DNA of 64,000 nt from Intoshia linei (GCA_001642005.1 LWCA01000028.1:9511-73510); one strand, 5' to 3'; shown: positions 14,332-63,544, counted from the first letter of the stretch. Numbers and translations: made by a program. Notes: generated by a model from the letters alone, not told the origin.

Positions 14332-16414
14332 GCAGATTAGTATATACGGCACGATCTTGTATTATCTTTGTTTTAGTAGATTTTTGAAAAAAAAACAAAT
14401 TCAGTGCGTGCAGACATAGTATTAAACTTGCTATTAAATGACAGATTTAAATGTATTTGATTAATTGTGTAAATATCAATTCTGTTTCTATTCGATTCTT
14501 TAAAAATTTTAATTTCTCAAACAACTTGAAAACTAGTTTCAAATCTTCTTATAATCTTCAAAATGCAACTTTATTTAGCTCAAACACTACTATATTGTAT
14601 TGTTATTTATAGGTCACTATGTATCTACAGAAATAATTTACAATAATCTTGAATTATCAACAAATTTTGTGATTATTAAAAAAATTTATTTGGCTTATTT
14701 TTTTCTCTATTATGTTATCATTATAACCATTGATAATTATAGCAATTGTATTCATCTGAAATTTGCGTCTATAGTCAAATATTAGGCTGTATATAATTTA
14801 TTCTTAAACGTCAGTTGAAAACTAATAAATTATTACAATGAATCTTTGTTTAATCATAAAAATTTATCACATATAAGTTTTGCATAAACACGTGTAGTCT
14901 AATTCTTGAGGCTTGAAATCTTTGCAAAAAATTAATTACACATAGTTACGAAAAAGCAATAAATAATTTGCTAGCAAATTGCTAGTAGCAATACACTATT
15001 TCTCGGTTTGATTTTACAAATAAAACCTTCATGCTGCTTATCATTGATCATTGAAACATGAAAATTCGTAACAATTTGAGAAAAATTAAAATTATTTTAC
15101 GTTAGTCATATTGGAAATTTATGGAATATCGAATTTAAATTTATTTCGTAAAATTTATGAAATTGCAGTCGTAGTTATAGAACTACTCAGTGGAAAAGTT
15201 TTCTGACAACTCTGCTAACATAAAGTGGCCAGAAAAATACGTTATATTACTTAAATTTAGTCTTAATTTATTTGGAATAAATTTCAGCAGAAAATTTTTG
15301 TTTGTCATTTAGTATTTTTGACTTTAACACTAAATAAACTAAAATTGATAGTACGTATTTTTTATGGCCTCTTTAGCTAGAGTGTCCAGTATGGTGTCAT
15401 ATTTTTTCGAAAATGTTAGAATTCGATGGACAATTAGCACTAAAACACTTTTAGTGCTATTTAGTAGTATATAGCTATAGTGTGTATTTTTAAAATAGAA
15501 AAACTAGTTCGCAATCAAAAACATTTAACGCTATCTAATAAAGTAGGTTAAATATAACGCAAAAGGTTAAAATAAAAAAAATTGTTATTCAGCCCTTCCA
15601 ATTTAATTTCATTGAATATAGTTGATATGATACAAAAACATACATTGTCTATAGAAAAAGAATTTGATACATTGAAAAACATCAGTTTCATAAATGACCC
15701 TTGCCAATACAAAGGAAATTTAATTTAAAAAATAATAATTGATGCAGATGATATATCACCATTTAGTTCATTTTTTGAGAAATGACCCATCTACGTCAAT
15801 TATCTTGATACATTAAATTAAATTGAGTTAAATTTAGTACACCTGGAAGCGATTTTTATTTTGAACAAGTAGAAATCACTGTTTCTGCATCATTTTTTTA
15901 AAAATACATCTACATGGCGAAAAAATTCCTAAAACAGGCATATTTGATGGTCATTGGAAATGGTGAATGAAGTAGATATGTGGAGTGTTATATATGATTG
16001 GAAAAGAAAAATCTTTACGTTACACTGTGTGTAATACACACTACGAAATTATAAACAGAAATGAACACTATTAATGAATACTACTAACAAAATGAAGCGG
16101 ATTATATGAAAAATATAATTATAATATATACTGAACTGTTAGTAAAAAATGTTAGTTTATTTATAGATCAGAAAGACTGTACTAATTATAATAATCTAAT
16201 AATAATAATAAATAATTAATTATAAAGAAAATTTGAATAATCTAACCATTAATGATAATGAATTTCATCAGTATTATCTAATGACCATATAATTTGACAC
16301 TACATATTCGTTATTCTGCCGAGTTTAAAATAAGTAATTAAGGAAAATATTGAACAACATTTATCAAAAATATAAATTTACAATATTTGAAATTTGACAT
16401 AAAATTAACATATT

Positions 16415-26100: not shown

Positions 26101-28224
26101 TATGTTTCAGTACATTTAAAGTTACACCCTGAAAAATCTGGTGAATAATGGATTTATTTGAAACTTACATTTCAACTACATTTGTATTATTTTTTAAATA
26201 ATCAATTTCAACAAATTTTATGGAAAAACCAATTAACCAACACATAATATAATGTTTCATTTTAATTGAATGATAAATAAACCATTTATTTAATCTAATA
26301 CTGCGTGGAAAATTAGTTTTTTTGGACTTGGTAATGGTGAACTATTCACAGAAAATTTCGTAAGGTCACTACTATTATTTCCATGTAATTTTGATAAACA
26401 AACTCGATTTTATGGAGGGTTATACCAAATAATAATATATTATATTATAATTTAAAGGAATGATAACTGATAAAACGCTGTTAAATGTGTTTGGAGTTAG
26501 TGGAATGAATAGTCGATATATTCAAGACGCTTGCCGGGTAATTTATACTAATAAAATTTAAAATGTATATTCTCTTTATTTTCAAAACAATTGCATTTAC
26601 TATAAGGCATTGTTTAGTTAAATGACATAAACGTGAGCAATTACACTGATGCTGATTTCAGAATAGGTGCCAGTATTAACATAATGGGAAGAAATATTAT
26701 TATACATGATTGCGATTCATTTACTCGTGAATTTTATCGGCTCAAATACAATTTAGGTTTGAAATTTAAATTTTAAATATAATGGTTAAATGTGAAAAGT
26801 ACATTTATACATTAAGGCTAATTTTTATAAAAAATTTAAAGTTGGCCTGAATAAAAAATTACTAAAATCTTACTTAATTGAAAAATGTTAGACATGGAAC
26901 CGCTTAAATGTGAAACAAAATGTTACGCTCCAAAATTAGACATGGAGGAAACCATTCCAGCACACGATGGAATAGGATCAGCTGAAGATAGTTATTCATC
27001 TTGTATAAGCTTAATACCGAAACCTCCACAAAAAGATTTTATTAAATTTTTAACTCTTGATAAAAACGGACTAGAAAGTTATACTTTGCGATTCAATTGC
27101 CTTTTGGATAATGTAGATAACACCGACAACAAAGATCGACGATTTATCATATCGTTTCATTTATCAGATGACACAGTTGAGATTCATCAAATGGTTGGCA
27201 GTAATTCTGGAATACAAGGCGGTAGATTCTTACAACGCCGTAAAATCAATAGGTTTGAACCAAAAGAAACCAAAACTCTCAAGGATGAACGCGATTATCT
27301 AATTTCTCAAGATTTTTATGTTGGTGCTCGACTCAAAATCTTTTCTCATTGTTTTTTGATTAACGACGCAGATCAGTATACATATAAATACATGGAAGAA
27401 AACAAGTCTAAGGTATTTTAATAAAAATTTTATTTATTTATTATTATTTAATGATATATTTAGTATCCAAAAGCCAACTCAAATTTAGTATTGGAAAAAT
27501 TACAAAAAATTGTTAAGCTCAACATTGTAAATGAAAAAATCAGTGAAGCATGTTTATGCTCAAAATTGGTTTATTCGTTATCAGATATAAACGACGTAAA
27601 AACTGTGGCTATAACCGCCATTGAAGTGAAATCATGGTTGTCCCAAAAAAAATTGGATTTGATTGATACAATTTCGGCCCACGAATTAATTACTTTGTTT
27701 AGAGAATTTTCAAATAAGGAAAAACAACAAAAGAATGATTATTATAAAGATTTTTGTTTAAAGGACATTCAAATGTACATTAAATCAGAATTAAAAAACT
27801 TGGACTACACTGAATATGATTTAATTGTTAGATATATACGAAATATTTATGAAAGGTAATTTCATTTATTAAAATAAATTAAAAATTAAAATTTAGCTGT
27901 ATAATTACAAAAGAAGAATTACTCAAAACATTGAAAGCTTGTAGATTACCAATAAACATGGATAAGTTGAACTCGTTGTGTGATAAGTAATTATAAATAG
28001 AAATTAAATTAAATTACCTTTTTTATGTAATTTTAATTTATTAAAGATATGTAATGGAAATGGGACCAGAGATTGATGTAGAAGAATTCTTAAAATCAAT
28101 AAATTGGTGTTTGGACATGTCAAATGAATTTGGAAATGAAAACGATTTTACTCCGAAAATTAACAACAAATCGATAATATTGATAAACGAAATAATAGAG
28201 GCAATATTTATTAAAAAACCTTAA
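23134..28224 (+). CDS. EFHC2: EF-hand domain-containing family member C2 (three DM10 domains; axonemal Rib72 family)
   Basis: KEKFHKSHH...GIGGEK...WLAFDKMVLSFNAFFQE...YFYLEDDTIQV..NSGMTQG..KRHRI, then the second and third DM10 repeats (YYLSNDTIEI, FHLSDDTVEI..NSGIQGGRFLQR). Confidence 0.92.
23819..24469 (-). mobile_element. Internally deleted hAT/Buster element in an EFHC2 intron
   Basis: TIRs cagtgtttcc ... gggaaacactg and 8-bp TSD ttgtaaat/ttgcaaat (nnnTAnnn). ORF 23967-24191 contains LLPFPSSYLAECGFS. Confidence 0.9.
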
Positions 28225-28246: not shown

Positions 28247-31200
28247 TTAGTTTGATTCACTTTCACTGGTTCCCAGTTGCGTATTTATATTACTTTTGGG
28301 TTTTGATGTTTCAGCTAGGTTTCTAAAATTAAATAAAATTATGACCAAAGCATTAAGTAAAAGAAATAATTACACATCTTGAGTTTCGTTAGTTTTTGAA
28401 ACATCTGAATCAAAAATAAGTAATTTTTCCTCTTTGTCTTCATCCGCGTCACTAGAATCACCGCTAAATGGCCTAAAAATTTAAATTAACAAATTAACAT
28501 GTAAATTAAATAATGCATAAAAACAAATTAAGTCTACATGTTTTTAGATCGTTTCCTTTTTTTCATTGATTTTACTTTTTTCCTTCTTTTTCCGTCATTT
28601 TCATTTTCTGAAGACGAAGCAGAAAATATATCATTAATAATTTTCTTCTAAATTTTAAATTTTAATGCAAAGTTTACGAGCATTCTAAATTTTTCTGAAA
28701 CAATTCAGTCGTATGTTTATGATTAAATTAACTAATGCAATATAATAATACCGATAATAATATTACATACATGTAAAATTTTATATTCTTATTTCAATAA
28801 TATAAACCTTTTTGTTTTCATCTATTTTTTGGAAACTAGCTACTAGTTTAGACCTTTCAATTAAAGCAGCTCTTGTTTCCACATTTTCTTGCATTTTTTG
28901 ATCCATTTTTAACTGTTCCTTTTTCTATTTTACAATAATTATTATATTAAAAATTTAAAAATATGGGAAAAAATAACACGATAACAAATGAACAAAACAG
29001 GCTAATTCCTGGTTAACGGAATAATTGGTGCTGAAAAAACCTTATCACGTTAACGAGGAATTTTTTACAAATAATGTATACATTAAAACAGTGGTTCCAG
29101 ATTGGGGTCCAAAATTATATACTCGGGTCCGTGAAATTCAAATAAAATATACAAATTTTTGATCAACTTTTGTTTATTTTTATGGGAGAATTTTTAATAT
29201 TTAATACATAGTTTCTAGATGTTGATTATCCCATAGCCTAGACGACCCCTACATAATTGTTTCAAAAATCCCACTTTTATCCAACCATTAATAAAATTTA
29301 ATAAAAAATAGAATTTCAAATCCTAAGAAAGAATAGACTTTTACAGATATTTTTTTATCCCATATCGGTTCATAAGTATTATAAGCTCACATAGAACCCA
29401 AGTTAAAAAGGTATACTAATTATTAAAATTATAAGAATATTTCATTTTTTTGAAAAATTCGATTTTAGGGAACCTTATGAAAAAAATCCACTTAATCAAA
29501 TCACAATATTTAAATATTTCACAATAATAAAAAATTTGATTTTACCTACCCTTCAGGGAAAAATACCTTTTTTTAATATTTTTTTGAAAAACACGATTTT
29601 ACCAAATCATATCAGAAAAACCACTTAATCCAACCCCAACGTAAAACTCCAATATTACCAACGCTTAAGAGAAATGTCCTCTTTTTCCAATATTATTTTG
29701 AAAAATCTGATTATACAAAATCTGATGAGCAACAACTTCCTAATCGAAAACCCAAAATAAAAAATAAAATTTTACCAACCTCAATAAATAAAATTATATA
29801 ATGAAAAACTTTTGATTTTCATTCCATTTAACCTATATTTGCAGGTCATTTACTTCGATATAATCAACCATTATTATCATCATTAATCAAGAAAAAAATA
29901 AAAAATTTTTACGTATCTAAAGCTTAAGGCGCCAAAAAAGGTTTAGTATAATTATGATGCTAGTCATTTTAAGTTAAAATTTAACCAAATATTTGTAATT
30001 CAGAAAAATTCAATGGTATTTACAGAAAATAACGGTAATACCTCCAATTCAATTCTTTTGTCCAAATTCTCTTGTATAGTCTGTCGACGTATTTTCTCTT
30101 TTTGTTTACGATCCTGATCTAAAGCTCTAGATCTCTCTAGTTGGTATTTTGTTTGACTCAATAAATCGGAACAATTTCTAATTAATTTAAAATTAGAATA
30201 CATTGCAGTTAGGATATTAGGATTATTATTATATTATATTATTATTATATACATTGAAATTAGGATACATTGCATTTAAACGCCTAGTGGATACGTTGTA
30301 CATAATACACCAGTTGGACCACATTGACTGTGTCTGTGAGTCTTATACACACTATCTTAATTATCAACATCAAATTTGAGTATAAGACAAAAAGACCGGT
30401 AACAACTCGTTAAATACGATAATAAATATTAAATATTAAGTACAATTAAAATTACTGATGTTGAATTTTGGCCATGTTGAATTCAAACCTTTCTTGTACA
30501 TCATGATTCATTAACAAAGAAAAAATTTTCATGGCCAAATTTAAATTTAAAATGGCTTCTTCTACTTGAATTAATTTGGACCTTTCATCCTCCATATAAT
30601 TCCGAGCCATTCTCTGCAAAACTAGTGCTTGATTATAAATAATCATGGTACTAGTAGGCTGAATATGTCGAGCTTTTTTCAACACCGTTAAACAATCCTT
30701 TAATCGATTAAGACGCATATACGAACGCGCCAGGTACATTAAAATTTCAATATTAGGGTACTTGTAAAATTTGGCCAAACAATTTTCATACATTTGAATA
30801 GCAGCCATATAATGTTGTTGTTCAAAATATACATGCCCAATATTAATCCATACATCGCTAAACTCGTTTGTTGCTTCTCGAACTTGCGAAAAAACATCTC
30901 TCGCTTCATTAAATAGGCGACGTTGAGCTAAAAGACAACCTATACCATGAGCCGCCCAAATATTTTGATCGTCATTTTTCAATACAGTAGTATATAATTG
31001 CATGGCTCGATCGTAGTGTCTTTTATCCTTATCCCTATCTCGATTTCCAGACTGCAAAGACTGAAGCCAAATATTTCCTAAAGCAATCATTGAATAAGCG
31101 TCGTTTTTGTCCGTTTTCAATAAAATTCTTTCAAATTTCTTTTGAGAAGCGCCCCATTCATTTTTAAAATAATGCAAATTGCCAATTAAACTCCAAGCTT

Positions 31201-34200
31201 CCTTGTCGTCTTTATTATATTGTAATGCCGTCTTGTACCAATCGGATGCATTGTAAATTTGACCATTATCACGAGCCATACTGCCTAATCGAAAATAGCA
31301 ATCAACATATTGCGGACACTTTTTTAAAACTTGTTTATAAACATTGTTAGCCTCGTTGAATTTATTTAAAGCTTCGCAAGCCAGTCCGATATTATAATTT
31401 ACGGTATGAATGAGAGACGAAAAATATTCATCTTTTTTAATATCCAACTGTGTTTCTGCGTACATTTTGGCTTTTTTGTAATAATTTAGTGATTTTTCGA
31501 AATTGTTTAAATTATAATGCAGAGACCCAACATTGTTGAGAATTTCGACAGGTACCTCAATTTGCATAACGTTTGTTAAAGTTTTTATAAGTTTTTCATA
31601 TGTGTCTATCGATAGACTCGGATCGAAATTTTCCAAAACTTGAGCATACTCGATCCAAGCTTCAATATCATCATTATGGCATTTTGTAATATTTTCTAGG
31701 TATTTTCTCGCTAAATTCATTTTTTCGTGTTTCCCAGATTTAAGATATAAAGAGGCCAACATTTTCAAAGTTTCATAATTATCTGGAAATGTTTTCAAAA
31801 TTCTCTCTAATGCTGCAATCGCATTGTTGTATTCATGATTATTAAGATACATTTGAGCTAAGCCAAAATAAGGCAATACAAATTTACTACTACTGTATTG
31901 ATTACACTGAAAGTAATATTGAAAAGATTTTTTGTAATCCTTTTGAATGTGATGAACTTTGGCTAATAAATAACAACTTTCTGCTTTCATTGATTCATTT
32001 TTAGTATTCTGAAAGGCGTGGATTGCAAGACTGTTTACTTTCTTATAATCTTGTTTATAGAAAAAATGGTTCGCCAAATGATTTAGAATCATGGCTCGGT
32101 TTTGATCTAAACTGTATGCTTTAGTTAACAATTCAACCCCTTTTTTAACATTTTCAATTGTTTTTGAGTTTGTTTCAATAAGTGCCAAGCCAATTAATGC
32201 ACTAACGCAATTTGGATCTAAATCCAGAGTTCTCCTGTACGCAATTCTGGCTCTATCAAAATTTTCTAATTTTGTAAAACAATGACCTATTCCTACTCGA
32301 ATGCAAGGAGGTCCATTAGGGATTAGTCTTAAAACTTTTCTGTAAAAATTTAAAGATTGTTTATAATCTTTTGCATTGTATAACAAGCATGCTTTACCAA
32401 GCAATGCAGGTACGCACCTTTGATCCTAATAAATGTATATTATTAGAAATTAATACAAAATAAGCACATTATCCTATCCCACGATTAAATAGCTCGAGGC
32501 CATCCGAAAATGAAAACCAGGCGCCCCAATTTTTTTGAGAACAATTTGTACAATGAACAACATGTTGCCATATGCACCTATCCAAGAATATTTTTATTTT
32601 TTTTAATTCGAAATTTGGAAAAATGAGGCCCATTGGACCAAAATTTATATTTTTTTAAATTTTGTGGTTAAATTCGAAGTAAACTAGAAACAAGGATAAT
32701 GAAGGTTGTTTTATTACAAAATTTACTTAGCCGAAGATTTAAATAGACAAATTGTTGAAATAAAAAAAACAGACCGGAGGTGGAGGAAAGTGCGGCCTTC
32801 GAACAGTATATGTTTTCTCACCTCTGCACCAGACCATTTAAAATATTTTCAAAAAATGCCAAAAATTAGACACAGAAATTGGTTTTCGGAGATATTTTAT
32901 TAGAATGTAAATTAATAAACTCAGTTTGCACTCATGTATCATCTATGAAATATAAATATTACTCTACTTTTGTAAAATTCAACCAAAATTAGTAATCTTT
33001 TTGTTGGTTTTAAGGATAAATTTATATTTATCAAAGTACCATAATTTCGCAACATCCCACAAAAAATATTCCAAAATATTACGATGTTAAGAATTATTAT
33101 TATAATAGTAACATTAAAATAGAATTATATATTGTAATTGTATAAATATATTTCTGTGTTGAAATAAAAATTAACTCGGCCCAACCATACTCACTCGTTT
33201 ATATTTAAAAAATATCCCCCCGTATCCGTTGGAGGATTACACTTGAAACAATATAAGCGTATATAAATACCTTTGACAAAACATAATTAAATTGTGTTTC
33301 TGCTTGTTCCACCTTGTCACCTCCAATTAAACAAAAATAAGCCCTTCCAAGTAAATGGTTCTAAAAAGTAAATGAATACATTGAAATATTGTTTTTACAA
33401 TATTTAACCCGATACAGTACATGCAGTACCATATACAACAATGAGTGCTGGCAATCAATATAAATGTTTCCATAATTGTATATATTCATTTTTTTAAATA
33501 AACATTTTGTAGTAATTAATTTTGAAAAAAATTCACTTTTACCAACTATTTTGAGTAAATCGAATTTTATCAACCTAGTTAATTAGTTAGTCCAAAGTTT
33601 AATACTTTAAAGAAAATTAATTTAAAACATAGCATAATAAATTATTATAATGTACATTATGTTAGTTTAGATTTTTAAATTTTTTTTCGATTGCCAGCAC
33701 TAACCACGACTAAATTTACGGACAAATATTTTGCAATTTTTACTCGCCCTTTTCTATAGAATTTCTGATTAACCACTAGTACCTTCCTAGTAATTTAAAT
33801 TTTTTTATAGTTAGCCCTAAATTTTATACTCCATATTTCATCATGAGCAAGGGTGGTCGATTTTCTGGTACCAGCAATTTTTTTAAATATATAAATAACT
33901 AATTTTTAAAATGTAAACTAAATACAATAACGCTTGTAAGTCTCTTAAAATTTATAATATTTAGAACTAAGTACTCGGAAAAAAGTATTTTTCCTTCATG
34001 GTTGCTAAAATATTGGAAACACATTCTCGTAAGGTTTCGTAAAATTGAAATTTTTATAAAAATATAGGAAAAGAGATTTTCCCTTAACTTAAGTCTTGCT
34101 AAAATTCCATTTTTTTTGGATTGGATTAAAAGTTTTTTATCACAATGTTTTTTGTAAAATCGTAAGAAAAAGATAATTAAATAAAGGGCTTGAAAAGGTA

Positions 34201-36945: not shown

Positions 36946-38141
36946 ATGTTATCTAACCTAACGCTCACAGTTAAAGAAAACATTTTACTGTTTTACAGAT
37001 TCAATCATGACTACTACTCAATGGAAAATTATAAAATAATATTAATTTCTATTATTTTTGGCATCCTTACTCTTGTAGGGTGTATAGAAAATGGATATAG
37101 TCTGGTAACATTAATTAAATAAATTATATTAAAAAAGTTTACTAAACATTTAGTACATTATTCTGTCCAGAAAAAAACTTAGAACATTGAAAAACATTTT
37201 TATCGGAAATTTAGCATTCACAGATATATTCATGTGTTCCATTGTTGAACCTTTCAATATTTATCAAATGATTGTCAATCAATGGGAGTTTGGTTTCATT
37301 ATGTGCAAAGTATAAAAAATTTGCTTTTTTATGGGTTAGTTTAGCGCAATAATGGGAGCCATTGCTTGTTTTGCTTCAACGTATACCATTATCACTATTT
37401 GCGTACATCGATATATTGCAATTGTTTATTTATCAAATACCAATGTAAAAAAACAAGTCATTGTCAGCTTTATGTTGATATGGATCACTAGTATATTTAT
37501 TCCTATGCCATTAATGTATCTAACGAAATATGATGGTATTTTTTAATATTATTATGATCTATCAACAATATGACTCATAACCCTGATGTTAATTTTATTC
37601 ATAATTGAGTATTCTTCATTTATTATCAAGTATTATTTAGATTTTAGATAATGTAATTTTAGTCTTCTACGTTAAGGGCAAAATGGTCAAAATATGTATA
37701 CAAAACCTCAATCATAAAATATTTGGACACTATGGATTAATTTTAATAATAACTCAATTTATAATTCCATCAATCTTGCTAATTTACATTAACTGCAGAA
37801 TAATTTCTTTAATTGTGAAAAGACCAAATTTTAATAAACAAATATCAAAAAAGACAAGTAAAAATGCAATTTCAATGTATGCAACGTATTCAAATTCTTC
37901 AAATGCTCGTAATGCTAAAAATATAACAATTCTATCAATTATTATATTTTTATTCATCGCAGTATGGCTACCACTAAATCTAGTTAATGTAATGTATAAT
38001 TATGGAATTAATATTGGAAATGTCGACATTGTATTGCCAGTTTGTCATTTTTTAGTGAGTCTCTCATCCTGTCTTCACCCAATAATATACGTGTGGTTAA
38101 ATACTACCATTAGACATGAATTTTTTATTCAATGTATGTAA
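36946..38141 (+). CDS. Rhodopsin-class neuropeptide GPCR, NPY/NPF/PrRP-receptor-like
   Basis: Four exons: MLSNLT (N-glycosylation site)...VGCIENG, LRTLKNIFIGNLAFTDIFMC..EPF...WEFGFIMCK, ICVHRYIAIV, QFIIP, VWLPLNLVN, CHFL..SSCLHPIIYVWLN. Seven TM segments. Confidence 0.85.
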
Positions 38142-38269: not shown

Positions 38270-39528
38270 AACTGTCAACTTCTTGACGCGTTCTGGTTAA
38301 ATTGTACTAGACACCTGTTTTATCGCATTCCACAGTGAATTCGTGATTCAATAGAATTATATTGGGTTCTAGCAGCATATAGCCCTTGCACTGGTAGAGT
38401 TATATGTATAGTTAATAGGTTATAAAAATATTACATCTTTATCATGCTCCAATAATTTTCTATTGGATTTAAAACTGGACTGTTAGGAGGCCAAATTATT
38501 AATTTTTCTCCATTAATAGCATTTTCTGATAAAAATGTCCTACTATATGGTCATACATGTGGAAGGTGAATCGTGCATGAATTTGAAATTGTTTTTAAAT
38601 TCTTCACTCTTTGAATTGAACCATGGAAAGTAGTTCTTCTCCAAAAACTCTGTGTAACTAACTATAAAAATTTAAACATGCCAAAATAGTGAGTATTACA
38701 ATTTAGAATTTAATTTTACGCCACTTGGAATTCGAAATGGTCCTAACACTTGACTATCAAGTATTACAGCCCAAAACATGACCCCTCCTCCATCTTTTTG
38801 GCAACGCAATCTAATCGGAACTTTAGCATCATTAAGTACCCAGCCTCTTGACCACCCACCCGGTCCATCTAAAGTTGCACGGCATTCATCAGTGAACATA
38901 ACCATATAGAAATTTATCTTTAAATTGACTTTAACCCAATTAAGACGTTTTACTTTATGAATTGGCTTTAAAATTGGTCTTTTCGTAGATTTTTTGACAT
39001 AAGAAATGGTTTTTAATACCCTACAACGAGTATTTCTCGAGAAATTGTTATGTTACAAGTTGTAAATAATTTGGAACTAGTGGCAAGTGGTGTGGTAGAT
39101 ATTTCTCGCCTTAATCGAGATAATTCTCGCAGTGTCATTACTTTTTTTTGCATATTTGGACCTATCATTTTAATTATTTAATTTTTTGATGGGTAATGAG
39201 CCCATTTTTTAATTTTCGATGGTCGCGTTTTAGAACTTTGGATATAAAGAGTTGTCTTTCCTCTGGCCAATAAGTCTGTTATTTGACTTTTTTCGTCATT
39301 CTTTTGTCTCATTTCAAATTTGCCTAACAAATTGACACACTAATTTAAGTATATAAACAATAATATGTGAATGAAAAGTTTTTTTTACAAATTAAATTTA
39401 GTTTATTTAATGAATAATATTAACATCAATTAAAAGCCACCTAATTACGAAACAAAAAATTAAGTTTTCATTATTCCTAAAGTTTATTAGATGAATTTTA
39501 GTGATCTGCCTAATAAATTAACACACTG
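38270..39528 (-). mobile_element. Decayed Tc1-like transposon (TRT/DD37E-like)
   Basis: VMFTDECRATLDGPGGWSRGW...GGGVMFWA and WPPNSPVLNPIENYW. One terminus (cagtgtgttaatttattaggca, flanked by TA) is at 39528, with an inner direct repeat near 39321. The left boundary is approximate. Confidence 0.85.
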
Positions 39529-43139: not shown

Positions 43140-43496
43140 TTATTGCGGTAATCTTGACTTGGATAAATAATCCATAAACCTTGACGCTTCTAAAGATCGT
43201 TTTCCTAAAAAACGGTTGAATCGCTCGTCCGAATTTTCGATTCGTTCCAATAATCTTCGCAGTTCTTCAGATGCTTGTGATCCATATTGATTAATGCTTC
43301 TCGTTTGCATAAACTCATCATTTAGACGACCATTAATTACTTTTCCATTTGGGTAACCGACGTCATTATAAAACTGCTTCCACTTTCTAAATATCGGTAA
43401 AGCGACTTTGTTAACATCTGGGTCTGAATTTTGTGAATTTACTCCAACAAAGATTAAAATATAGTAGAATTTCATAAAACAATTTTTCGAAATCAT
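43140..43496 (-). CDS. Putative neuropeptide precursor (signal peptide, amidated peptide ending RFNRFL-GKR)
   Basis: Single-exon 118 aa ORF with a hydrophobic N-terminus (FYYILIFVGVNS|Q), basic sites RK, RR and KR, and a GKR amidation/cleavage signal. Confidence 0.7.
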   Translation of the reverse strand: MISKNCFMKFYYILIFVGVNSQNSDPDVNKVALPIFRKWKQFYNDVGYPNGKVINGRLNDEFMQTRSINQYGSQASEELRRLLERIENSDERFNRFLGKRSLEASRFMDYLSKSRLPQ

Positions 43497-43713
43497 TATT
43501 AAAATGAAACTTAATGAAATCTATTGATTGCAACTTTTATTAAGAATGTAAATAAACGACACCACTTTTATTAATTGAAATGAGCAAAGTAATACATGTA
43601 TAATTATAAACTAGGTACTACTGCAGAACGGATCAGAAGTCAAAATCGATAAAAGAACATACTAAAACATTTAATTTACACATGTCAAAATATACACAGA
43701 AATTAAAACAATG

Positions 43714-49700: not shown

Positions 49701-52700
49701 TCATACACCCATATATTTTATATAAATAAATTTACTTTGTTCCGAATCATAAATTATAACAGCGTTTCTCACCTTTTTTACTCTTGTGGACCATGGAAAT
49801 TTGTAGTTAGATTAAATTTTAACATAAGTTTCAATGGTGAACATTTCTTATTTATTCGAAAGAAATGTGTTATTTTTAATATAATATAAATAATATTCTA
49901 CTGATTCTTCGTAGTTGAGAAACGCTGCTCTATTTTTTGACATTTTTTGGAAAATATCAACCCAGTTATGGTTGAATAACAAGGTTTAAAAAAATATAGT
50001 ATTCTACATTATTTATCTCGCATAAGTATATCAAATTCCAAAGTGGGAGTGTATTAGTAAAGTATAGATAAAATACTGCATTTCCATATGTAAAACTCTT
50101 AAAGTGTTTGTATTGTGCCGCAAACCAAAAAGTTTGAGAATCACTAGTTTGATTAAAAAAATACTCTGATAATCCAATAAAATTCTTGATGTATCTATAG
50201 CGTATTTTATGTAGTCGTTCAATTTAGCTCTAGCAGCTTTGGTTAAACGCGGTAATATAAAGTATGAAGAAATTGCATCTCTAATTGAAAATTCGGATCG
50301 CTCGTTTACTAAAAATTGTTAAATTAATATTAATAACTTGAAAACGTTTTTCAGGGTTTGCAGGTTTTGATTGTAGATGAAAAATAATTTTTGAACGCGG
50401 GTAAGCTATAAATTGATCCAATGCAACCTCCAGTTTAATTTCAGGTTTTTGTACAAAAAAAGGTAATTTTAATAATTCATCCATTGATATTCTAACCAAA
50501 TTATGACCATAAACTTAAAATAATACCTATCAGGAAGTTCTTCTATACATCTGAAAACTAATGCTTTTATTTCTAAATCCCTGATCATATAAATTTCTTT
50601 CGGTTTTATTCCCTAAATAATAAATAATTGTTTTGTAAATAAACATCATTGTATATATACAATGGGGCCAGGTGATCCGCACTTTTTTTAATATCAAAAT
50701 GGCATATACATTATCATATACTATATACCAGTGATTCTTAACCTGGGAAATAGCGCCCCCCTTGGAGCGATATGGGTGGCAAAAATATTTTTATCGCATC
50801 AGTTGGGATTCCAATATAACATCAGATTATAACCGTTCAATGAGCCTAGCTGGCACAGTCGTTATAGTCACATGATTATTTTGTAGAAAGGGTTTGTATT
50901 CATTTTTGGAATGTTACTATTATCTATTGGAATCTTAATGTTACTATTGGCCTTTCCATCTACTTACCTTGTTGAGAAAAGTTTTAGCGTAGTAACTGAT
51001 CTTCAATCAAAAAAGCGGAACAAACTACATTTATCAAAACAGTGACTTAAAATTATGCTTAACAAATATAGCTCCTGATATTGAAAAATTATCAAATAAT
51101 CATCAATATCAGGGTAGCCATTAATAATAAATTTTATCTTTTCTTTGTAAAGCTTAAACATTTATAATGTCATGATTCCATTTAATATTTCTAATTTCAA
51201 ATTTGTTAAATTTATTCATTATAATATATTTTTCTTTTTTTTACATACTCAGTTTTTATGGTATTTTTTGTATACATTATTTTCATGATCCATCAAATTA
51301 AAAAAATAATTTCCAATTTCATTTGCATATTTCTTGAGATACCAAAAAAACAATCATTAATTGCTTTTTTTATTGTATTCTGTATCAAATCTACTGTTAA
51401 AAAAATTTCTGTATAACATGCATTGCACATTCATAACCTTTGTAAATTAAAAAATATCGATTGTCTTTATGAGGCGATAATTTTATTTTTGTTGAAAAAT
51501 GGCCGAATACGATTGCGATTTAATGATTACGATAAAATGATGGCTGAGATGCGGCAATGGCCGCCAAGAAATTTGAGATTGAACCGTCATACATTCTTAA
51601 CTGTAAACAAAAGAGAAACAAAAAATTTCATTGAATATTTGACCTAAGTAAAAAACCTGTATGACAAAATAGCGCAACAAATTTGTAGAAATTTTGAATT
51701 TTTAAAAAAACAAGTTGTTAATTAAATTCATCATTACGGATATTAAATAAATGTACTCGTCCTAAAAGCTATGACATGTTTGCCTAACCCGAATTATAAT
51801 GAGGACACTTTCAATTTAGATATAATAATGATCAAGGATGATACCAGCATTGCTGTTTTATTACCAGCAAAATTAATCAATTTTTTGAATACGATTAAAT
51901 TTTGATGTATAATCACAATTTGAATTAATTTAGAATAAAATCTCTTATTATCATTTCATATTATCGTTCAACAGCATGAATTCATTAAAACACTTTAAAA
52001 AAGACGGAGTTAATTACATGCAATGTTTAGTATGCTCAAAAAGAATCAAATACATAAATTCTCATTCACACATGGCGTCATTGAGGAACCATTTAAAAAT
52101 ACATGGTGACTTGGACAATGTTTCTGTCACGCCAAAAATAACGAGTATTTTAGCAATTAAGAAAGATGAAAAATTTCCAAATTTGCCACATATTCCATAT
52201 CATTTTGTTAAGAATATACAAGATAATTATTCTTCACTATATAGTAATTACTCTGGAATGATTGATATTCAATATGTTGATACTATAAGTGGAAAGTGGA
52301 GAGATGACTACAATAAGTTGTATCAATTGGTTAATGGTCATAAAACCCTTAGAACTTATCATTGCAATCCGAAAATTAACTTTAGAAAACCATGTAGCAT
52401 CTCAAATGCTAGATGGAACTCTAGAAGTATATACTGCCTCAAAGCTTTTATATTAAACGTGGATAGAACGCCAAATATGATCGAAGCGTGTAATTTCATA
52501 TCTTACGTGTGGAGCAATTGCTGGTTTACGTGTCGTTTCCAAAAAGACACCTACAAACCTTTGGTAATTATTTAAACACAATAGTTTTTCGCCAAACTGA
52601 ACGTCTCCGTAATCAATGTTATCTTAAATATGGTCAAACTAAGATAAGCCCTCGGTATATTCTACTCATACATAGTTATAAATATTTATATACAAATCGT

Positions 52701-55700
52701 ATAGTAAAATTCAGTATCCTTTTGAGCACCCTCGTAGAGTTTTCAAATAAAATATCATAAATTTATCTTTATCATTATGGACGAAACTGATTTAAATAGA
52801 TATAAGTACATTAATACTATGATCAGAACATTAGAAACACCTCAGACTGTAATATGATTGTAAAAATATTACAAGTAATATGAACGGACAAATGGTCATT
52901 CATACTCTTCATGATACACATAAAAATAATTAAACAAAACAATACAAAGAAACTTTTTAAAAGATAATTTTAAAAAATATTTGATTTTGTACTACAACAA
53001 ATAATACACATTTTATACATCTTTATTAATACTTAAATTAGAGATCGGAAACCTTTTGCATCTAGTAAACCACTTTTCTATTTTTTACAGGTGTATTAGA
53101 AATAGTAGATATGACTAACGGGTACTAAATTTAAAAAAGGTTATGAAACCCTGAATTAGATATTTACGGACATAAGACAACGCTGCTTGTTCTACAACAA
53201 CTATCTAATAATGGCAATAAAATTATGTTTTAAAATTTATAAAACGGTGCTACAACCGACAAGGCCACAGAAATATTATTATTATGGCGAATAAGAGATT
53301 TCACTATTTCAGACAGAGACAGTATTTCATCACTGTTTAGAAAAAAATTTAACAAAAAAAACAACACTACGTGAATTTTTTTGTTTTTATGGGTTAAAAA
53401 AAAATCGCCCTAATTATAACCTATCAAGATCTGATTAACCAATACGTAGACCAACATTTGACAACTACATTGGTTATCAAATCAGCTATTCCCGGACTCA
53501 CAAAATCAATTCAACGTTAATACTTAAAGTTAAAATAAGAGATTTTGCCAATCTAAGGTATCTAGAAATTTTCAACACAAAATTAAAAAAAATTAAATTG
53601 GTATATTCTTCATACTCAAAATCACTTTCCTTACTCTTGACAAATAAGATGAAAGCAATGATTGAATTTTTCCAACGTTTCAATTATACCAATCTCTACA
53701 AATATCACTCCATTTGATATTATTATAGAATGTTGACAGAATTTAGAGCCTACGCGTCATCCAAACAGCTGAAGATGGTGGCCGCTTGTGTAGACTTCTT
53801 GTTTATGGCGTCGCGAGATAAAACTTACACAGCTTTGAGACTGGCCGCAATAGCAACAAGGTATTATGAACATGCATCCTTATCATTGATGAAGGAGTTC
53901 ATGATTGAGGGACGCATGGATTCATGTTTATGGTTTCATTCAGTGGCATCCACAAATGTATCAGACGAGTTGTGGAAGATAATGGAAGATCCAGGGCTTA
54001 GTGAAAGAGACTCTCTTATACCATATTCAAAATCTATGATTATAGTAGCAAGAAGTCCATACTCATCGTCGGCGAATTCTTATTCTTATGTTAGCATGGC
54101 AACGTCCATGATTTCTATAGGACAAAGATGTTTATAAAAATTTGTTAAACGACATTGAAATTTGTAAAAACATTAATTCTAGTAATAAATATATATTTCA
54201 TTTTCAGCAATTACTCGTGTTTATCACAAACTTTATGTCTCAATTTAGTTATTGTTTAGTTACGCAATTTTTTTATGTATTTTTTAAATTTTCGTCTCTA
54301 AGCAATATTAGTACGTTAAAAATAGTGTCGCACAGTGCGACTCGCACTAGTTAAAATCACATCTTAGATTTAGAAAAATTTATGGTTCCTTATTTGAAAA
54401 GACAGGCATAGAATTCAATTAAAGACCCTCGCAATATATCTACCGCTATCGGATAATATACGAACTTACTTTCGCCTTTTAATTACCGATTCAAAACTGA
54501 TGTAATGAAGCATTTAAAATGGTATGGTACAGGCTTAACATTTGTGGAAGTATATAAACAAAATCTGTAACTACAATAAATACAGCAAGAATTAACCTGC
54601 AAAGATTACAGTCGTTATGATAGAAGAATATCATTATGGATGAGGAAAAATATAGAGCAGCCATGTTATTTAAAATGGGTAAACGCACGCTGTAAGGATT
54701 CACTACAAAAAAGAAACATATATAACAGCAATGATATAGGCGAGATCCCATGAAGCCGTAAAACTAATAGAAAATTTACAAACCTCAAAACAAGGGAAAC
54801 AATGTCTTGGTGCGATAACAACTATATTTCTAAAAAAAATAGCCCTGTATGAAACCACCAATTTTCTCACTGCAAAAAGATGGTCATTTCCAGAGATGGT
54901 GCAGTGGAAAATACGAAAACCTTAACGATATCAAATCCGGCTTAAATACATATATCGATGTCACCAATATCGAAGGCGAACAGGTAAATTTAGTGAAATG
55001 TATTATTGATACTAATGGAAACGAAAATATCATTAAAACAAACATAATTGTATTAAAGCTATTCACTCTCCCCAAAAATGTATAAAGGCGATTTGATCTT
55101 ACGTACTTACACTGCGTTCCAAGTTATTAGGTAAGTCACGTTTTGCCGAACACTATGGTTTACTGTTTATATTGATAATTTTTTTTGCTAAGTAATTAAA
55201 CTTATAATATTTTTTACGAGATTTAAGTTTTTTAAATTTTGTGTATCGTCAAAGAAAAAGTAATTAATTAACTTTTTTAATTAATTGATGTTCCAAATTA
55301 TTAGGTAAATAAATAATGGGGCAAAAAAAAAAAGACCTTACAAAGGACGAAAAAACCAAAATTACCAAACTTTTGAGCAAAGGTAATAGTCTTCACGAAA
55401 TTTTGCGTCAAAAATCGATAGGAATGTAAGGACGATAAAGAAATACACTTTGAACTCTGAACGAAAAAGGGCGCGAAAACCTAAAGGCGGTATCAAAGGA
55501 CTGACTACACGAGGATACCAAAGATTGTTGTTGAACTTGCAAAGAAACCATTATCATCATCAAAAAAACTTTTTCGTCAGCTGGTTTGTCTACAATCCCT
55601 CGAACATCAAGATGTCATGCACTAAATAGAATCGCAAAATCCGTTAAAGCCAAAACAAAACCACTTCTTAGCTAAACAACATAAACATAGAAGAGTCAAA

Positions 55701-58700
55701 TGGGCTCATAATTATATGAAGACCGATTTTTCGAAAGTTATATTCACGGATAAGTGCTGATCGACTTTAGATGGACCGGATGGGTGGACGAGAGGTTGGG
55801 TTTGTAAGGAGTGGGGACCGGTATACCGCCTTCGGAGACAACAAGGTGGTGGAGGTATCATGTTTTGAATGGCAATTGTAAGTGATAAGATTGTTGGACC
55901 ATTTAGACACACTGCAGGGCTAGAGTCGATAGGTTCACGCATATCCAGTTTTTAAAGGACAATTTCTTTCCATGGTATTCTCGACAGACACAAAAGTTCA
56001 AAAGGGGTCTAGTTTTTATGCAAGACAATGCACCATGTCACTCAGCTAATGATACCAAATCTTTTCTAGCATCAAAGCATTTCAAAAACTAAAAATTAAT
56101 GGTTTGGCCGGCTTTGTCACCTGATCTCAACTGCATTGAAAATATGTGCAAAGTGCAAAGTCCATTACCCCAGTACAAATAAAAATGTTGACCGGGTCGA
56201 TGGAAAATAGACTTCTGAAGATCGTAGAAAACGAAGGTGACTACATCAACTACTAATTAATATATTTCTTTTTTTATAGTGTTGTTTGTTTAATTAGTTT
56301 AATTTAATTTAATTATTTAACATTAAATGTTATTTTGGATACATATTTATGTTTTGTAAGAGCAATTAATAAGTTAAAGTGATTAATTGTATAACTTACC
56401 TAATAATTTGGAACGGTCAAAAACCAATATATTTTAAAAACTCGTCAAATAATTTTACTATTTTTCTGAAATTTCGAAGATGTTCTTTCACAAGGTCTAC
56501 GAGTTAACGTAAAAAAATTGTTAAATTTTAACAGCTTAAAATCAGTGAAATGCCACATTTCAACACTTACATAATAATTTGGAACGTAGTGTACACAAAC
56601 ACCATAATTCCATATCAAGGTTGCATTAACCTAATTTTTCCAGATAAAAGCAGAACATTTAATTTTTATATAACCAATGGTCCCAATGTCCTAAGCTGCA
56701 AAACATCGTTGCAAATGAAATTTTGCAAACAAATTTCAAATGAAATGAATTAAAACAGTAGACCAGTCGACAATGAAACCTAAAGCAGTTTAGTATATCG
56801 ATGCAGTCGATTCAGCAACAATATCTCCCATCTATAAAAATATTTTCGTCAAATTTCGGTACGTACTATCTAATTACAAATGTACGAGCAATACCGGCAT
56901 TCACTCAATACCGTTAAGGAAGACACCGGTTATAAAGGACCCATATACACTTATTTATCAAATTTTTCTCGATAATTCTCGAGAAATTGCAAGCTCTAGT
57001 TGTAATGCTTTAACCCAGATGGAGTACGTCAATTAAATAAAATTAGACAAAGATTTCATTTGCACAGACCCCCTAAAGTTGTATTTAGAAAGTCAATTTT
57101 TAAAATAAAAATCTTTACTAATAATAACTCTTCTAAATAGATATAACAAGAGTTTATACCATTTGGAAGGGTTTGCTGATTTCGAATGAAAAAAAAAAAT
57201 GGAAAGTAAATTTTTCATCATAAATTGAAGGCTCTGAAAACCATTAATGCTTCCAATGGAGAAAATGTGTATAATTTCTCGAATGCTACCCTACAAGGTC
57301 CTCAAGGTTTAATATAAATACACCTAAATCTCGAGTTTTTATCAGGGTGGAATTTTCAGTAAATTATTTTGTATAATATTAAAAATTACCACAACGACTT
57401 TTCTGTAAACTTGAATGGCATTTTTACATTCAGTATAAGGATAACGATCGGTAGCCATTTCTACAACACACATACCAAAAGAATAAATATCGACCAATTC
57501 ATCATAATTTTCACTATATATTTCTGGAGCCATAAATTGAGGTGTACCGATAATGGACTTGACATGATCATTTTTTTTAATCCCGGCCAATCCTAAATCA
57601 CCAATTTTAACTGTTCCAGTAGACCCAGAAATGAAAATATTATCGCATTTTAAATCACGATGAATGATTGGTGGTTCTTGGTTATGTAAAAAGTTTAAAC
57701 CGAGAAGAATTTGCTTACTCCAACTCCTAATAAGCTTTCTAGATACAGGTGCTAAACTTTTAATATACGCCTTGAGGGTTCCTGAAGTGAGTAAATCAGT
57801 CACCAACACAAGATCTCCCCGTCTTCGTTCACTATTCCAAAAGTCATGATATTGAACAATATTATTGTGACTAATCCGTTTGAGCAAACGTGCCTCTTTG
57901 ATAAAAAGCATAACAACCTCTTTTGACCACGCTTTACTATGTAATTCACACCAAGCAAGATAGATTCCAGTTTCCGTGTCCAGACAAGGGTAAACAATTT
58001 TATACGAACCTCTTCCCACTGCAACTTTAAAACGCAGGAAACGGCCACAGGGAGACATTAATTTATCATCGTTTTTTTTATCGACGAAATCGTTTTCTTC
58101 AATATCCACTTCAAAATCGATAAATTCATCTGGGTTTTGAACTTCAATGATTATAGAATTATCTGAATCGTCCTCATCGTTTGTTTTGAAAATAATTTCG
58201 TTTAAAATAGCCATAGCTTTTGATTTACTGATATTTTTCCCACCAATATTAGCCTTGAGTCTAAACATTTCATTTTTAATTTTTTTCAATCTACTGTATT
58301 TGAAAACTTTTCGATCACAACTTCGTATCTTTAAAGAATTTCTCATAATATTCATTTGGTGCCAATTGCAGACTTGTGATGAATCATTTTTTAATTGACA
58401 ACCACACACAATTAATCTTTTTACAACAATTTCACGTCCATTACGGTCAATGCCTTTTTTTTCTAGCCATTCGGTAGTTATGTCATGCATTGAACTAGAC
58501 ATATTTTTGGATTTAAGACAATTGTATTTACTGAGTTCCAGAAGATTGAATTCTTCAAAATTAATGCTTCTTTCGGTTAAACTAATAATGTTTATGTTGT
58601 TACACGTTGGAGCGTAAAAGTAACTTTGATCTTGCATTCGTTCTTTCAATATTGGATCAGCGTATCGAACCGTGTCCACGAAATCGTTTGAAGGGTCACT

Positions 58701-59140
58701 GAAATATGCCTCATCGCCTTCTTTATGCTTAAAAAATCTCTTTTTTCGTTTTCGCCAGGCGTGCAGGCCTGTATCTTTGGTATTGACGCATTCATTAATA
58801 TCATAAATCATTGGAATGAAAAGTTTGCCATCTAAAGAAATATTTCTATACTCAAAATCGGAAAAGGATTTTGTAATTTTTAGAATTCCGTTAGTATCGG
58901 TTTTCTCAAAAAATACTTCAGCTTGTTTACCTAAAAACGACACTATAAAATGAATTTTTCAAAATACATACCATCAGTAGTCATCTTTCTGTTTTTTGCA
59001 GTATTGTTAAACACAAACATGCCCTTGCGAGTGTTGTAATAAATTTTCATTTCTGATTTTAAATTTCTCTTTTTCTTTGTCTTTTTAAGTGTTTTTTTGA
59101 CGTTAAAACGTCCCGTTTTAACTGGCTCCATATCTGACAT
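43714..59140 (-). CDS. WNK: WNK (With-No-Lysine) serine/threonine kinase, multi-exon
   Basis: GRGSYKIVY (Lys in subdomain I), [28 protein letters not shown] and [10 protein letters not shown]. The kinase resumes after a 6.8 kb intron (GIKP.. at 50612). Later exons, in phase where checked, include a C-terminal coiled coil ([22 protein letters not shown]) and a Q/N/Y/P-rich last exon ending at 43714. First exon 59140-58972. Confidence 0.88.
45164..45339. mobile_element. Foldback MITE with about 56-bp TIRs and 5-bp TSD
   Basis: ccaaggacagtttaaaccaagacgaaatacgaggcgttctagtaaaaaagattgtg is matched by its reverse complement at the right end. tacat flanks both sides. Confidence 0.8.
48220..48922. 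mobile_element. Probable hAT non-autonomous element in a WNK intron
   Basis: Ends tggtggccaaacacggcccgcg ... tttagctaccactg resemble hAT TIRs and subterminal motifs. Confidence 0.45.
50729..51125 (+). mobile_element. hAT/Buster remnant in the WNK intron
   Basis: Terminus cagtgattcttaacct. Coding relic [29 protein letters not shown]. Confidence 0.8.
51976..52575 (+). mobile_element. BED-zinc-finger transposase remnant (hAT-related)
   Basis: [11 protein letters not shown]...[11 protein letters not shown] (BED finger), followed by a [17 protein letters not shown] transposase core motif. Internally deleted. Confidence 0.7.
53230..53620 (+). mobile_element. Possible heavily decayed Ty3/Gypsy integrase fragment
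   Basis: [11 protein letters not shown] resembles the integrase IVSDRGxxFTS motif. DLINQYVD / [13 protein letters not shown] and VKIRDF resemble the post-catalytic and C-terminal integrase regions. Frameshifted. Confidence 0.4.
53730..54137 (+). other. Endogenous viral element: rhabdovirus-like nucleoprotein (N) fragment
   Basis: [11 protein letters not shown]...[16 protein letters not shown]...[13 protein letters not shown]...[23 protein letters not shown] aligns motif by motif with vesiculovirus/lyssavirus N (KIVAAVDMFF, RYGTIVSRFKDCAAL, VADEMVQMM, DSYMPY, SPYSS). Intronless and richer in GC than its flanks. Confidence 0.85.
54327..54351 (+). mobile_element. Helitron-like 3' terminus (GC hairpin plus CTAG|T)
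   Basis: gtcgcac-a-gtgcgac palindrome followed 5 nt later by ctag and t. Confidence 0.55.
54361..54720 (+). other. Endogenous viral element: nodavirus-like RdRp (protein A) fragment, pseudogenised
   Basis: One frame with four stops reads [49 protein letters not shown]...[29 protein letters not shown]. This matches Nodaviridae motif F (PRNIST..LS.FTY.FK..V....WY) and motif A (DYSxxDG..S.WM..NI). Confidence 0.85.
54790..55109 (+). mobile_element. Ty3/Gypsy (Mag-like) gag zinc knuckles and protease N-half, decayed
   Basis: SWC...SHCKKxGHFQRWC double CCHC knuckle relic, then [14 protein letters not shown] (retropepsin DTG-like). Interrupted at a TA by the Tc1 element. Confidence 0.65.
55110..56591 (+). 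mobile_element. Near full-length, inactivated Tc1-like transposon with both TIRs, DD37E (TRT-like), IR/DR ends
   Basis: TA|cactgcgttccaagttattaggtaagt ... acttacataataatttggaacgtagtg|TA, with inner repeats at about 55290 and 56400. Transposase VIFTD..LDGPDGW...QDNAPCH...SPDLNCIEN has 37 residues between D and E, plus stops and frameshifts. Confidence 0.92.
56592..56950 (+). mobile_element. Continuation of the Gypsy protease and start of RT after the Tc1 insertion
   Basis: [14 protein letters not shown]...[11 protein letters not shown] (protease C-half), later [17 protein letters not shown] (RT N-terminal-like). Confidence 0.55.
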
Positions 59141-59789
59141 GCTAAATTGATTTATTTTTAATTATTATTGTAAATTACTTAAAAGGTAAATAACTATATT
59201 TACAATCTCAAATTAAATAGCCACATTTGAAAAAAAGCATATTTTCAAACAAATCCGAGTCTTGACAAAATTTATATGGTTATCCAAATAAAAGTATATT
59301 CAAACACTGCGAACTGGTTTGTTTGAATACATAGTTCAATTTACAATTTGAGGCCATTATTTTTCAATTTGCAATTTGAAATTTGCGAATGTAAACAAAT
59401 ATATGAGTATAACATTGATTTTGGATATAATTTAAACGCACACATGTGTAGAGTATTTAGTTCATAGCATTATTACTTCAATTGTACCAATGTATACTTT
59501 GATACAATTTATGTATCGATTTAGTTCTACTTTTAATATTTGAATTTGCATATTAATTTACTCGTGGACTCTCATTTAAATTTTAAATGAATCAAATCAA
59601 AAATGACTCAATTGAATTAAACTGTTAAGAAATTTTTATTCCACTTTTAAATTTACGACTGATTTTGTACCAAAACTTCATTTCATTTTTAAATTAAATT
59701 ATGTACTTTTTTTGAGCAAAGCCATTTATTCATTCCAAAAATTCTAAAGTTCATTTATTAATGGGCGTTCAATGTTGCTTCATTTAAAC

Positions 59790-62339: not shown

Positions 62340-63466
62340 ATGGACGATCCAACCACATCTTTTTTGCCTGTTACATCTCAAGATGCGAACATATTGATAA
62401 CTGAAAACATTGATCATTATGATATGGATAAGTTTTTAGCGATACCCATCGAAACTCATAATACTGCGAATTCACGACCAAGTGACTATCTAAAAAAAGT
62501 TAATATTAAATATGCCGAAAAATCGAGACCTCACGCTGTTGCAAGGTTCATTCATTGTATTCTATTATCAAATTACTTTTTTTTTTTAATTTAAATCTTA
62601 GAATTTGTCAATTTGCTGTAAATAAAATTCAACTAAAAAATGAATTTATCAAAAATTGTGCAGATTCAAATGGCACTTTTGCATTTGTTATTGCTTTAAA
62701 AATGAAGGTTTGTAATATATTTACGTATCCGTCCGTCGGGAGTTTCAGTCAATATAAAAGTGTGTTTGAATAAAAATTCTCATTACATGGAATGTGAATT
62801 ATTGAATATTACTAACCCTAAAGAAGAATTCATCTGTATCACCCATACCATTCGTAGATAACATCACTTCTTTTGACTAAGTTGAAACTTTTGTAAGTAA
62901 AAATGGTACTCAATAATTATAATTATAATTATCATAATTAACATTTTAGTATTAATTCCAATAATTCCATTTGAGGAAAGATAAATATTCAGATTTAAGA
63001 TTTTGATTTTATTTTGATAAATTTTTAAAATGAAAAAGGTATCAATGTGCAAAATGGCTTTTTCTCTAAAAAAGTGTCGATGCTTTAGTACTACATATTA
63101 CATTATATTTACTACATAAATTATTTGTAATTTTTTATCTGATTTAAAGTTTAGAGAACTCGTCGTTCAGTAAAATCAAGAGAAATAATAGTAAATATTA
63201 AAGAAAATTTGGATTTACATTGCGACGTTTTGATTACGTTTGCATATTGGCACATGATAAAATTTACATCGGGGTTATCTACATTGGAAGTATTTTTGCA
63301 ACAGAAAAATCGATACATAAAACGACGTGTTTTTGGTTATAAAAACATTGCAATCGGAACAATTTGCATGGATACCCTTCTACAAAAAGGGAAATCTACC
63401 ATGTCATTAAAAATGTTACCTTTTTTTAAAGAAAGTTGTGATCTATTTTCAATATTACACATTAAA
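62340..63466 (+). CDS. PACS: Phosphofurin acidic cluster sorting protein, 5' part (continues beyond window)
   Basis: AVARICQFAVNKI...FVIALKMK|RTRRSVKSREI...FAYWHMIK...LEVFLQQKNRYIKRRVFGYKNIAIGTICM matches the PACS1/2 furin-binding region (VIAVK..KRILRSNEI, YPHFLK, LQRRKRY....GYKTLAVG.INM). Confidence 0.85.
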
Positions 63467-63544
63467 GTTTGTACTAAACCTTATAACAAAAGTTTACTCA
63501 AGTCACGTAATTATTTTATTATAAACTAGGTTGACTGTTATGTA

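Follow-up and report, generated by a model that had tools for sequence, protein, structure and literature searches.

Endogenous viral elements (EVEs) derived from the nucleoprotein (N) of rhabdoviruses are common in arthropods. EVEs of various kinds are reported to be widespread in invertebrates (PMC11097642). Betaplatrhavirus was described as a genus of rhabdoviruses from trematodes and cestodes, or from animals infested with worms (PMC12451637). Among the flatworms of the data set of Dheilly et al. (2022), rhabdoviruses were described only in neodermatans and none in flatworm genomes; it was proposed that an ancestral neodermatan acquired a rhabdovirus from fish and seeded other rhabdoviruses, and that host switching between co-infecting parasites was frequent (PMC9241645). 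A rhabdovirus of cestodes was shown by Hahn et al. to be transmitted vertically, a route by which the germ line can be reached (10.1101/803247). The genome of Intoshia linei has not gone wholly without mention of viral relics, since Pinzon et al. (2019) noted an RdRP of a viral family in its proteome (PMC6396948). In the literature searched, with subscription journals outside the search, we found no report of a rhabdovirus or an endogenous virus in Intoshia, and none of endogenous platrhaviruses.

We analysed a 64,000-nt stretch of DNA (the window) from Intoshia linei, an orthonectid. This species parasitises a nemertean. The locus had been discussed in an arthropod context; because an NCBI protein of I. 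linei contains the identical 135 residues, the host is not an arthropod, and Orthonectida have been placed in Annelida (PMC12249979). The window carries a truncated piece of rhabdovirus N, antisense in a kinase intron. It is probably a fossil, dead and rather young, left by a Betaplatrhavirus-like virus that likely infected germinal cells of this orthonectid lineage. The features around it are as follows.

50165-50308, 50346-50491, 50527-50612 and 58969-59146, minus strand: further exons of the kinase gene (spliced contigs).
50613-57389, minus strand: 6,777-nt GT-AG intron of the kinase gene (spliced contigs; GT and AG ends at 57389 and 50613).
51833-52575, plus strand: BED-finger/hAT-like transposase relic, open over 213 codons at 51934-52575 and lying 1.2 kb upstream of the N piece.
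52935-53423, no strand assigned: multi-copy repeat left of the spacer (high summed contig depth, differing loose ends at 53414-53419).
53424-53726, no strand assigned: AT-rich spacer, 28% GC, separating the left repeat from the viral piece.
53727-54127, plus strand: rhabdovirus N-derived segment, an EVE (Pfam, profile of seven N proteins, GC island, repeat start at 54128).
54128-54349, plus strand: orphan 3' end of a multi-copy repeat (contig ends; 91% identity over 152 nt to a copy at 3701-3848).
55108-56593, plus strand: broken Tc1/mariner element with inverted ends (DDE_3, 34 bits, stops read as X).
57390-58927, minus strand: large protein kinase exon (Pfam Pkinase, 151 bits; spliced contigs).

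Elsewhere in the window, ordinary host genes were seen at 7891-9213, 13396-14361, 25811-27856, 30455-32425 and 63155-63526; by eye these include genes resembling a sugar transporter, ATG13, EFHC and CTR9, and by Pfam the N-terminal C2 domain of PACS. A short minus-strand frame at 43143-43520, whose N-terminus is hydrophobic and which has a GKR site of amidation type, resembles a neuropeptide precursor by eye. The plus-strand frame at 37641-38138 looks, likewise by eye, like a class A GPCR-like protein of which only the C-terminal half is present, which is notable in a host whose nervous system is very reduced.

The N frame of 135 codons runs on the plus strand from the ATG at 53730 to the stop at 54135-54137, exactly as the earlier note had given it, and the five motifs quoted there, SPYSS included, were all found in the translation. 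The stop-to-stop frame has 139 codons (53718-54137), with an in-frame stop five codons ahead of the ATG. The Pfam search that had been suggested as a check matched PF00945 (Rhabdo_ncap) with E of 3.7e-10 and 39.7 bits, against a cut-off of 26, over model positions 180-291 of 410, and this was the sole family at E<=1. When PDB was searched, 7 of the 8 sequences at E<=10 were nucleoprotein or nucleocapsid chains (best E 1.6e-5), the top entries being N of SVCV and VSV by their titles from Foldseek. The central motifs of N, namely the D of the VDxF helix, two arginines and PY...SxYS, stood in the expected order and spacing.

By phmmer against 1.84 billion protein representatives, nine matches were obtained, of which seven were rhabdovirus N proteins with 26-32% identity. 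The best viral match was Himastelon rhabdovirus 1 (WOC29233.1, E 2.6e-8), and the remaining ones were Eptesicus fuscus rhabdovirus, Wenling dimarhabdovirus 9, psilorhabdoviruses 1 and 2, sphaeridiorhabdovirus 3 and Fujian dimarhabdovirus. D22, R37, R44, P98, Y99, S109, Y111 and S112 of the fragment were invariant with these seven relatives. The other two matches were the NCBI gene model A3Q56_00514 itself and an unnamed tandem-repeat protein, P0006. P0006 (743 aa, near-identical tandem repeats, on a 298-kb NCBI contig) gave false summed matches in both phmmer and Pfam: its E of 3e-12 sums seven short stretches, the best at residues 63-95, it matches a 33-residue stretch, and none of its four Pfam matches has a stretch passing alone. 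It was rejected as an N relative, the match being a summed-repeat artefact, and is probably a translated satellite. Pfam, PDB and phmmer thus support the reading as an endogenous element that stems from the N gene of a divergent rhabdovirus, and apart from P0006 nothing cellular or transposon-derived matched better than mononegaviral N.

Mapped onto a vesiculovirus-type N of 422 aa, the segment covers residues ~181-309, which is the middle third only; about the first 180 and the last 110 residues are missing, so it is not a full two-lobed N of ~420-500 aa with both arms. The profile of the seven closest N proteins aligned at 53727-54089 with 79 bits and scored the fragment at 82 bits, and a profile from 67 loci of other rhabdoviruses scored it at 50 bits. 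The comparison loci comprised these 67 and an overlapping set of 61 from other rhabdoviruses together with 17 lyssavirus-type loci, the labels 'alpharhabdovirus-type' and 'lyssavirus' being inferred from motifs. The N piece forms a GC-rich island at 53746-54107, with 41% GC against 21-28% in the flanks; the best change points were 53746 (interval 53724-53754) and 54107 (53975-54135), consistent with the profile match. Third-position GC was 0.40 in the N frame, against 0.26-0.28 across seven host frames. When the bases of the intron were shuffled, 8 of 500 trials gave a frame of at least 139 codons; shuffles of the GC island left it open in frame in 0 of 5000. The fold predicted from the single sequence had a pLDDT of 37; the alignment-guided model had a pLDDT of 72 and found rhabdovirus N first in Foldseek, but with E>0.001 and by a circular route.

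In the whole window neither N profile gave a second N match, and across six frames of the 6,777-nt intron Pfam detected no L and no other viral family; the fragment is truncated and is linked to no complete viral genome in the window. Rfam gave 0 matches in window positions 50-60 kb, and an Atlas search with the fragment returned nothing at 0.9 or above. No relatives were present among the 19 and 115 candidates of the IMG/VR and JGI scans, and scans for the flatworm-virus group found no member; the word-based searches recovered at most the NCBI model A3Q56_00514, or 2 of 7 seed proteins.

The viral piece directly abuts the right-hand repeat, which is cut at 54128. Contigs of runs X1, X2 and X4 begin at 54128 or 54137 and continue upstream into letters absent from the window, and an identical 8-nt terminal motif ends the repeat at 54349 and its other copy at 3699. 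The right repeat is likely the end of a hAT-type DNA transposon, a label which we take from its motifs. The second copy of this end (3699-4268, minus strand) is preceded by a frame with what is presumably a hAT dimerisation-like motif, to which Pfam lent no support. Because the repeat starts at 54128, the last two codons and the stop of the N frame fall in the host repeat. That the insertion split the right repeat was considered and rejected, since the upstream letters are absent from the window and the left terminal motif was not found there. On the other side, the left repeat has at 53405-53412 a terminal motif which we assume to be hAT-like, and the spacer (53424-53726) matched neither N profile in three frames. 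The ~300 nt upstream of the piece had also been tried as decayed N, by a loose by-eye alignment, and were discarded: the anchored score was matched by 33 of 150 shuffles, and the local scores by 333-383 of 1000.

Further out, the 213-codon frame of the BED/hAT-like relic joins a BED-finger region to a second region that is transposase-like; it gave no Pfam match, and Atlas placed zf-BED/Hermes clusters at 0.90-0.93, which is a lead only. Other copies continue differently after 52184 and 52537, and therefore this copy looks internally deleted. Each inverted end of the Tc1 relic carries two direct repeats (55108-55136/56565-56593 and 55290-55308/56394-56415), presumably an IR/DR-type layout. The 22-nt direct repeats start at 55115, 55290, 56394 and 56565, with TA at both outer ends, and a related second Tc1/mariner relic lies at 38699-39052 on the minus strand. 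No retroelement was identified beside the viral piece, and no target-site duplication or poly(A) was found at its edges, the longest shared flanking words being 5-6 nt; a 5-nt candidate duplication was dismissed because the word occurs 4 times in 800 nt. Such retrotransposition marks are not required for membership among EVEs.

The N piece lies antisense inside the intron of a kinase gene which we take to be WNK-type from its motifs, a position overlooked by the earlier note. The intron joint 57389>50611 was present in contigs of X2, X4 and X5 (three of four runs, two studies), so that the spliced intron and the multi-copy repeats give the piece a host chromosomal context. The intron is dense in transposons and more than 100 times longer than the median intron of I. 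linei, which is 57 bp (PMC6543705). The contigs came from five runs, none of them on record as RNA (shares 0.05-0.18), and depth over the fragment was taken from two sets of four runs, five different runs altogether. Contig depth was 0 at 53804-54120 in 4/4 runs and at 53464-54119 in 4/4 runs, but the contigs are filtered and the hole proves nothing; the DNA-like run X1 covers unique intron stretches near the fragment. The integration rests on the assembly. Repeats on both sides of the piece make the site prone to misjoining in a short-read assembly, and one might suspect a chimeric assembly, or an insertion that is not fixed in the germ line and entered a pooled sample as a rare allele. We regard this as highly unlikely: neither a misjoin nor an empty site left any positive sign, no joint in the contigs of the five runs skips the fragment, the window has no N letters and the recorded contig is 73,510 nt long, RNA contigs connect the flanking exons with 0 differences, and a negative-strand RNA virus without a DNA form cannot contaminate a DNA library.

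The frame had been called recent or constrained on the ground that neighbouring inserts were full of stops. This held for the broken Tc1 relic but not for the BED/hAT-like relic, which is open over 213 codons and exceeds the N frame. In a simulation of neutral decay (2000 runs, spectrum from contig substitutions, indel rate assumed to be a tenth of substitutions), the N frame was still open in 57%, 33% and 7% of the runs at 1, 2 and 5% divergence; at 8% divergence with indels an open frame was rare (0.75%), which counts against a neutral fossil. Set against their other copies, the neighbouring relics show 22 differences in 362 letters (BED/hAT-like relic) and 16 in 213 letters. These pairwise differences imply ~3-4% per copy (interpolated), at which the open N frame is unremarkable. 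Of the two readings 'recent' is preferred; constraint is unsupported as the cause of the open frame and not needed, because both ends of N are missing, the stop is borrowed from the host repeat, and the frame of the neighbouring relic is longer. The fragment keeps 16 of the 29 columns conserved among the seven relatives, and each relative left out in turn keeps 24/41 to 29/33. In the 13 columns that differ, 12 of the changes are one base away and 8 are conservative, which may hint at a divergent virus plus light decay. The 16 kept columns would fit either decay or a distinct lineage.

The 135 residues are contained exactly in the NCBI model A3Q56_00514 (OAF71728.1, UniRef100_A0A177BBM1; 249 aa), which was the sole match in the search among longer proteins. 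The model joins 51976-52316, in the BED-like relic, to the N piece, and carries the UniRef auto-label 'Rhabdovirus nucleocapsid domain-containing protein'. It describes a host gene with a BED-like first exon, and its label omits the intron position, the truncation and the virus affinity. Taken at face value, it would describe a co-opted gene in which a BED finger is fused to N, with the N piece as exon two and perhaps a dominant-negative antiviral protein as product. The model exists, its intron ends in GT..AG, both parts are open frames, and the arginines at positions 214 and 221 of the 422-aa vesiculovirus-type N are kept, the former presumably with a role in RNA binding. But what serves as its first exon is a single copy, diverged and internally rearranged, of a transposon present in many copies, in which the frame of the relic continues 85 codons beyond the proposed donor; the model lies antisense within the intron of another gene, its protein is a singleton cluster, and 13 of 29 conserved N columns differ. 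No contig joint matching the 52316>53729 splice of the model was found in the runs examined, the contigs being filtered. A functional fusion gene is thus very improbable, and A3Q56_00514 is likely a prediction artefact, falsely fusing a transposon relic with a viral relic.

The orientation of the fossil allows another role, which is compatible with its being a fossil: carried along in antisense within the kinase pre-mRNA, it could give rise to piRNA-like RNAs complementary to viral N mRNA and so serve as antiviral memory. The antisense orientation is observed, the intron is dense in transposons and of the exceptional length given above, and the N-only element of the dog whelk yields negative-sense 5'U RNAs of 26-30 nt (PMC6085071); yet the orientation of a single insertion is a coin toss. 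We consider such a role quite unlikely.

Which virus left the piece was approached through the seven phmmer relatives. Six of them are ICTV exemplars of Betaplatrhavirus in Table 17 of PMC12451637, and the seventh is Wenling dimarhabdovirus 9. When the fragment was compared by BLASTP with 42 full N proteins (29 + 6 + 7), the six highest scores all belonged to the same group of seven. A tree of 32 rows and 132 columns was built from 21 of the 29, 3 of the 6, all 7 relatives and the fragment, and it thus covers three virus groups only; Alpha- and Gammaplatrhavirus, Beta- and Deltarhabdovirinae and the dog-whelk element were left outside it. In this unrooted tree, the kind of phylogeny that had been asked for, the fragment fell among rhabdovirus N proteins, with the seven relatives at 100/99. 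The seven had been chosen by likeness to the query and therefore the grouping was favoured. The branch of the fragment is long (2.08), and the tree was flagged for long branches meeting. In the best tree the fragment stood outside the seven (84/22), but placement beside Himastelon rhabdovirus was not rejected by the AU test (p 0.42). The AU test rejected a grouping with the four-member alpharhabdovirus-type group containing the best such match of the fragment (p 0.0003) and one with lyssaviruses (p 0.002), the tested groups having been named only after the tree had been seen. At the 13 columns which separate the two virus groups, the fragment has the residue of the flatworm viruses at 9, that of the other group at 1, and neither at 3. 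In a Foldseek search with a model built from other rhabdoviruses, the top match was a rhabdovirus of the sea louse (E 4.6e-3); Fujian dimarhabdovirus came seventh, and there was no match at E<=0.001.

On these sequence comparisons, the fragment is likely Betaplatrhavirus-like, with viruses of parasitic flatworms as its best matches, a link that the earlier note had missed. The ICTV criterion for Betaplatrhavirus is clustering in L-protein trees, and its viruses come from cestodes, trematodes or animals with worms; because the host here is an orthonectid, the fragment is filed as Betaplatrhavirus-like and not as a member. The piece might instead be a real endogenous N from another, unsampled lineage, for example of annelids, nemerteans or molluscs, with the flatworm link a product of thin sampling. 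The long branch, the best identity to any viral N of about 31%, the three virus groups in the tree, and the position outside the seven in the best tree, with the Himastelon placement not rejected, speak for this, and a mollusc N-only element of different affinity has been described (PMC6085071). However, all seven viral phmmer matches at E<=0.001 among the 1.84 billion representatives are of one group, as are the top six BLASTP matches among the 42 N proteins, and 9 of 13 diagnostic columns agree with the seven. We hold an unsampled lineage to be unlikely.

The piece could have arisen as follows. A Betaplatrhavirus-like virus would have infected germinal cells of the orthonectid lineage. Rhabdoviruses have no DNA stage, so that the reverse transcriptase of a host retroelement would have copied the viral RNA, and a partial cDNA would then have been patched into a break within the transposon-rich intron; neither a target-site duplication nor a poly(A) tail pointed to a specific retroelement. 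The piece would now be transcribed only as virus-genome-sense RNA in the kinase pre-mRNA and then spliced out. N needs its arms and two lobes to coat RNA, as seen in the VSV N structure. Because the arms and most of both lobes are gone, the fragment presumably makes no working protein.

If the affinity is true, this would be a chromosomal fossil of a Betaplatrhavirus-like group, of which none was found reported in the literature searched, and a living relative may still exist in Intoshia or its hosts. The link would extend a group of flatworm-parasite viruses to a new animal lineage. A germ-line fossil nearest Betaplatrhavirus in an orthonectid would be a heritable record outside flatworms, and it bears directly on the scenario of Dheilly et al. 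On even terms with its opposite, in our view, is the broader proposition that Betaplatrhavirus-like rhabdoviruses are not confined to parasitic flatworms and that one entered the germ line of orthonectids, which are parasites of marine invertebrates derived from annelids, the virus group either jumping between unrelated endoparasites or predating Neodermata.

Compared with known systems, the fragment is closest to N of Betaplatrhavirus and Wenling dimarhabdovirus 9, with which it shares 26-32% identity centrally, 9 of 13 diagnostic residues and one side of a 100/99 branch. N of the Betaplatrhavirus type has 441-500 aa and belongs to free viruses of trematodes, cestodes and worm-infested animals (PMC12451637), whereas here there is a chromosomal fragment of 130 residues in an orthonectid. 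The dog-whelk element described in 2018 is likewise an N-only rhabdovirus relic in a lophotrochozoan, and is transcribed negative-sense (PMC6085071). That element was placed between lyssaviruses and other rhabdoviruses and had DNA-PCR and piRNA support (PMC6085071); its sequence was absent from our matches. The rhabdovirus N EVEs of arthropods are, as here, truncated N among transposon relics, likely via retroelement reverse transcription. The Intoshia fragment differs from them in host phylum and virus clade, and no retroelement or target-site duplication was identified here. The kind of element is therefore well known, and the novelty lies in its host and its virus clade.
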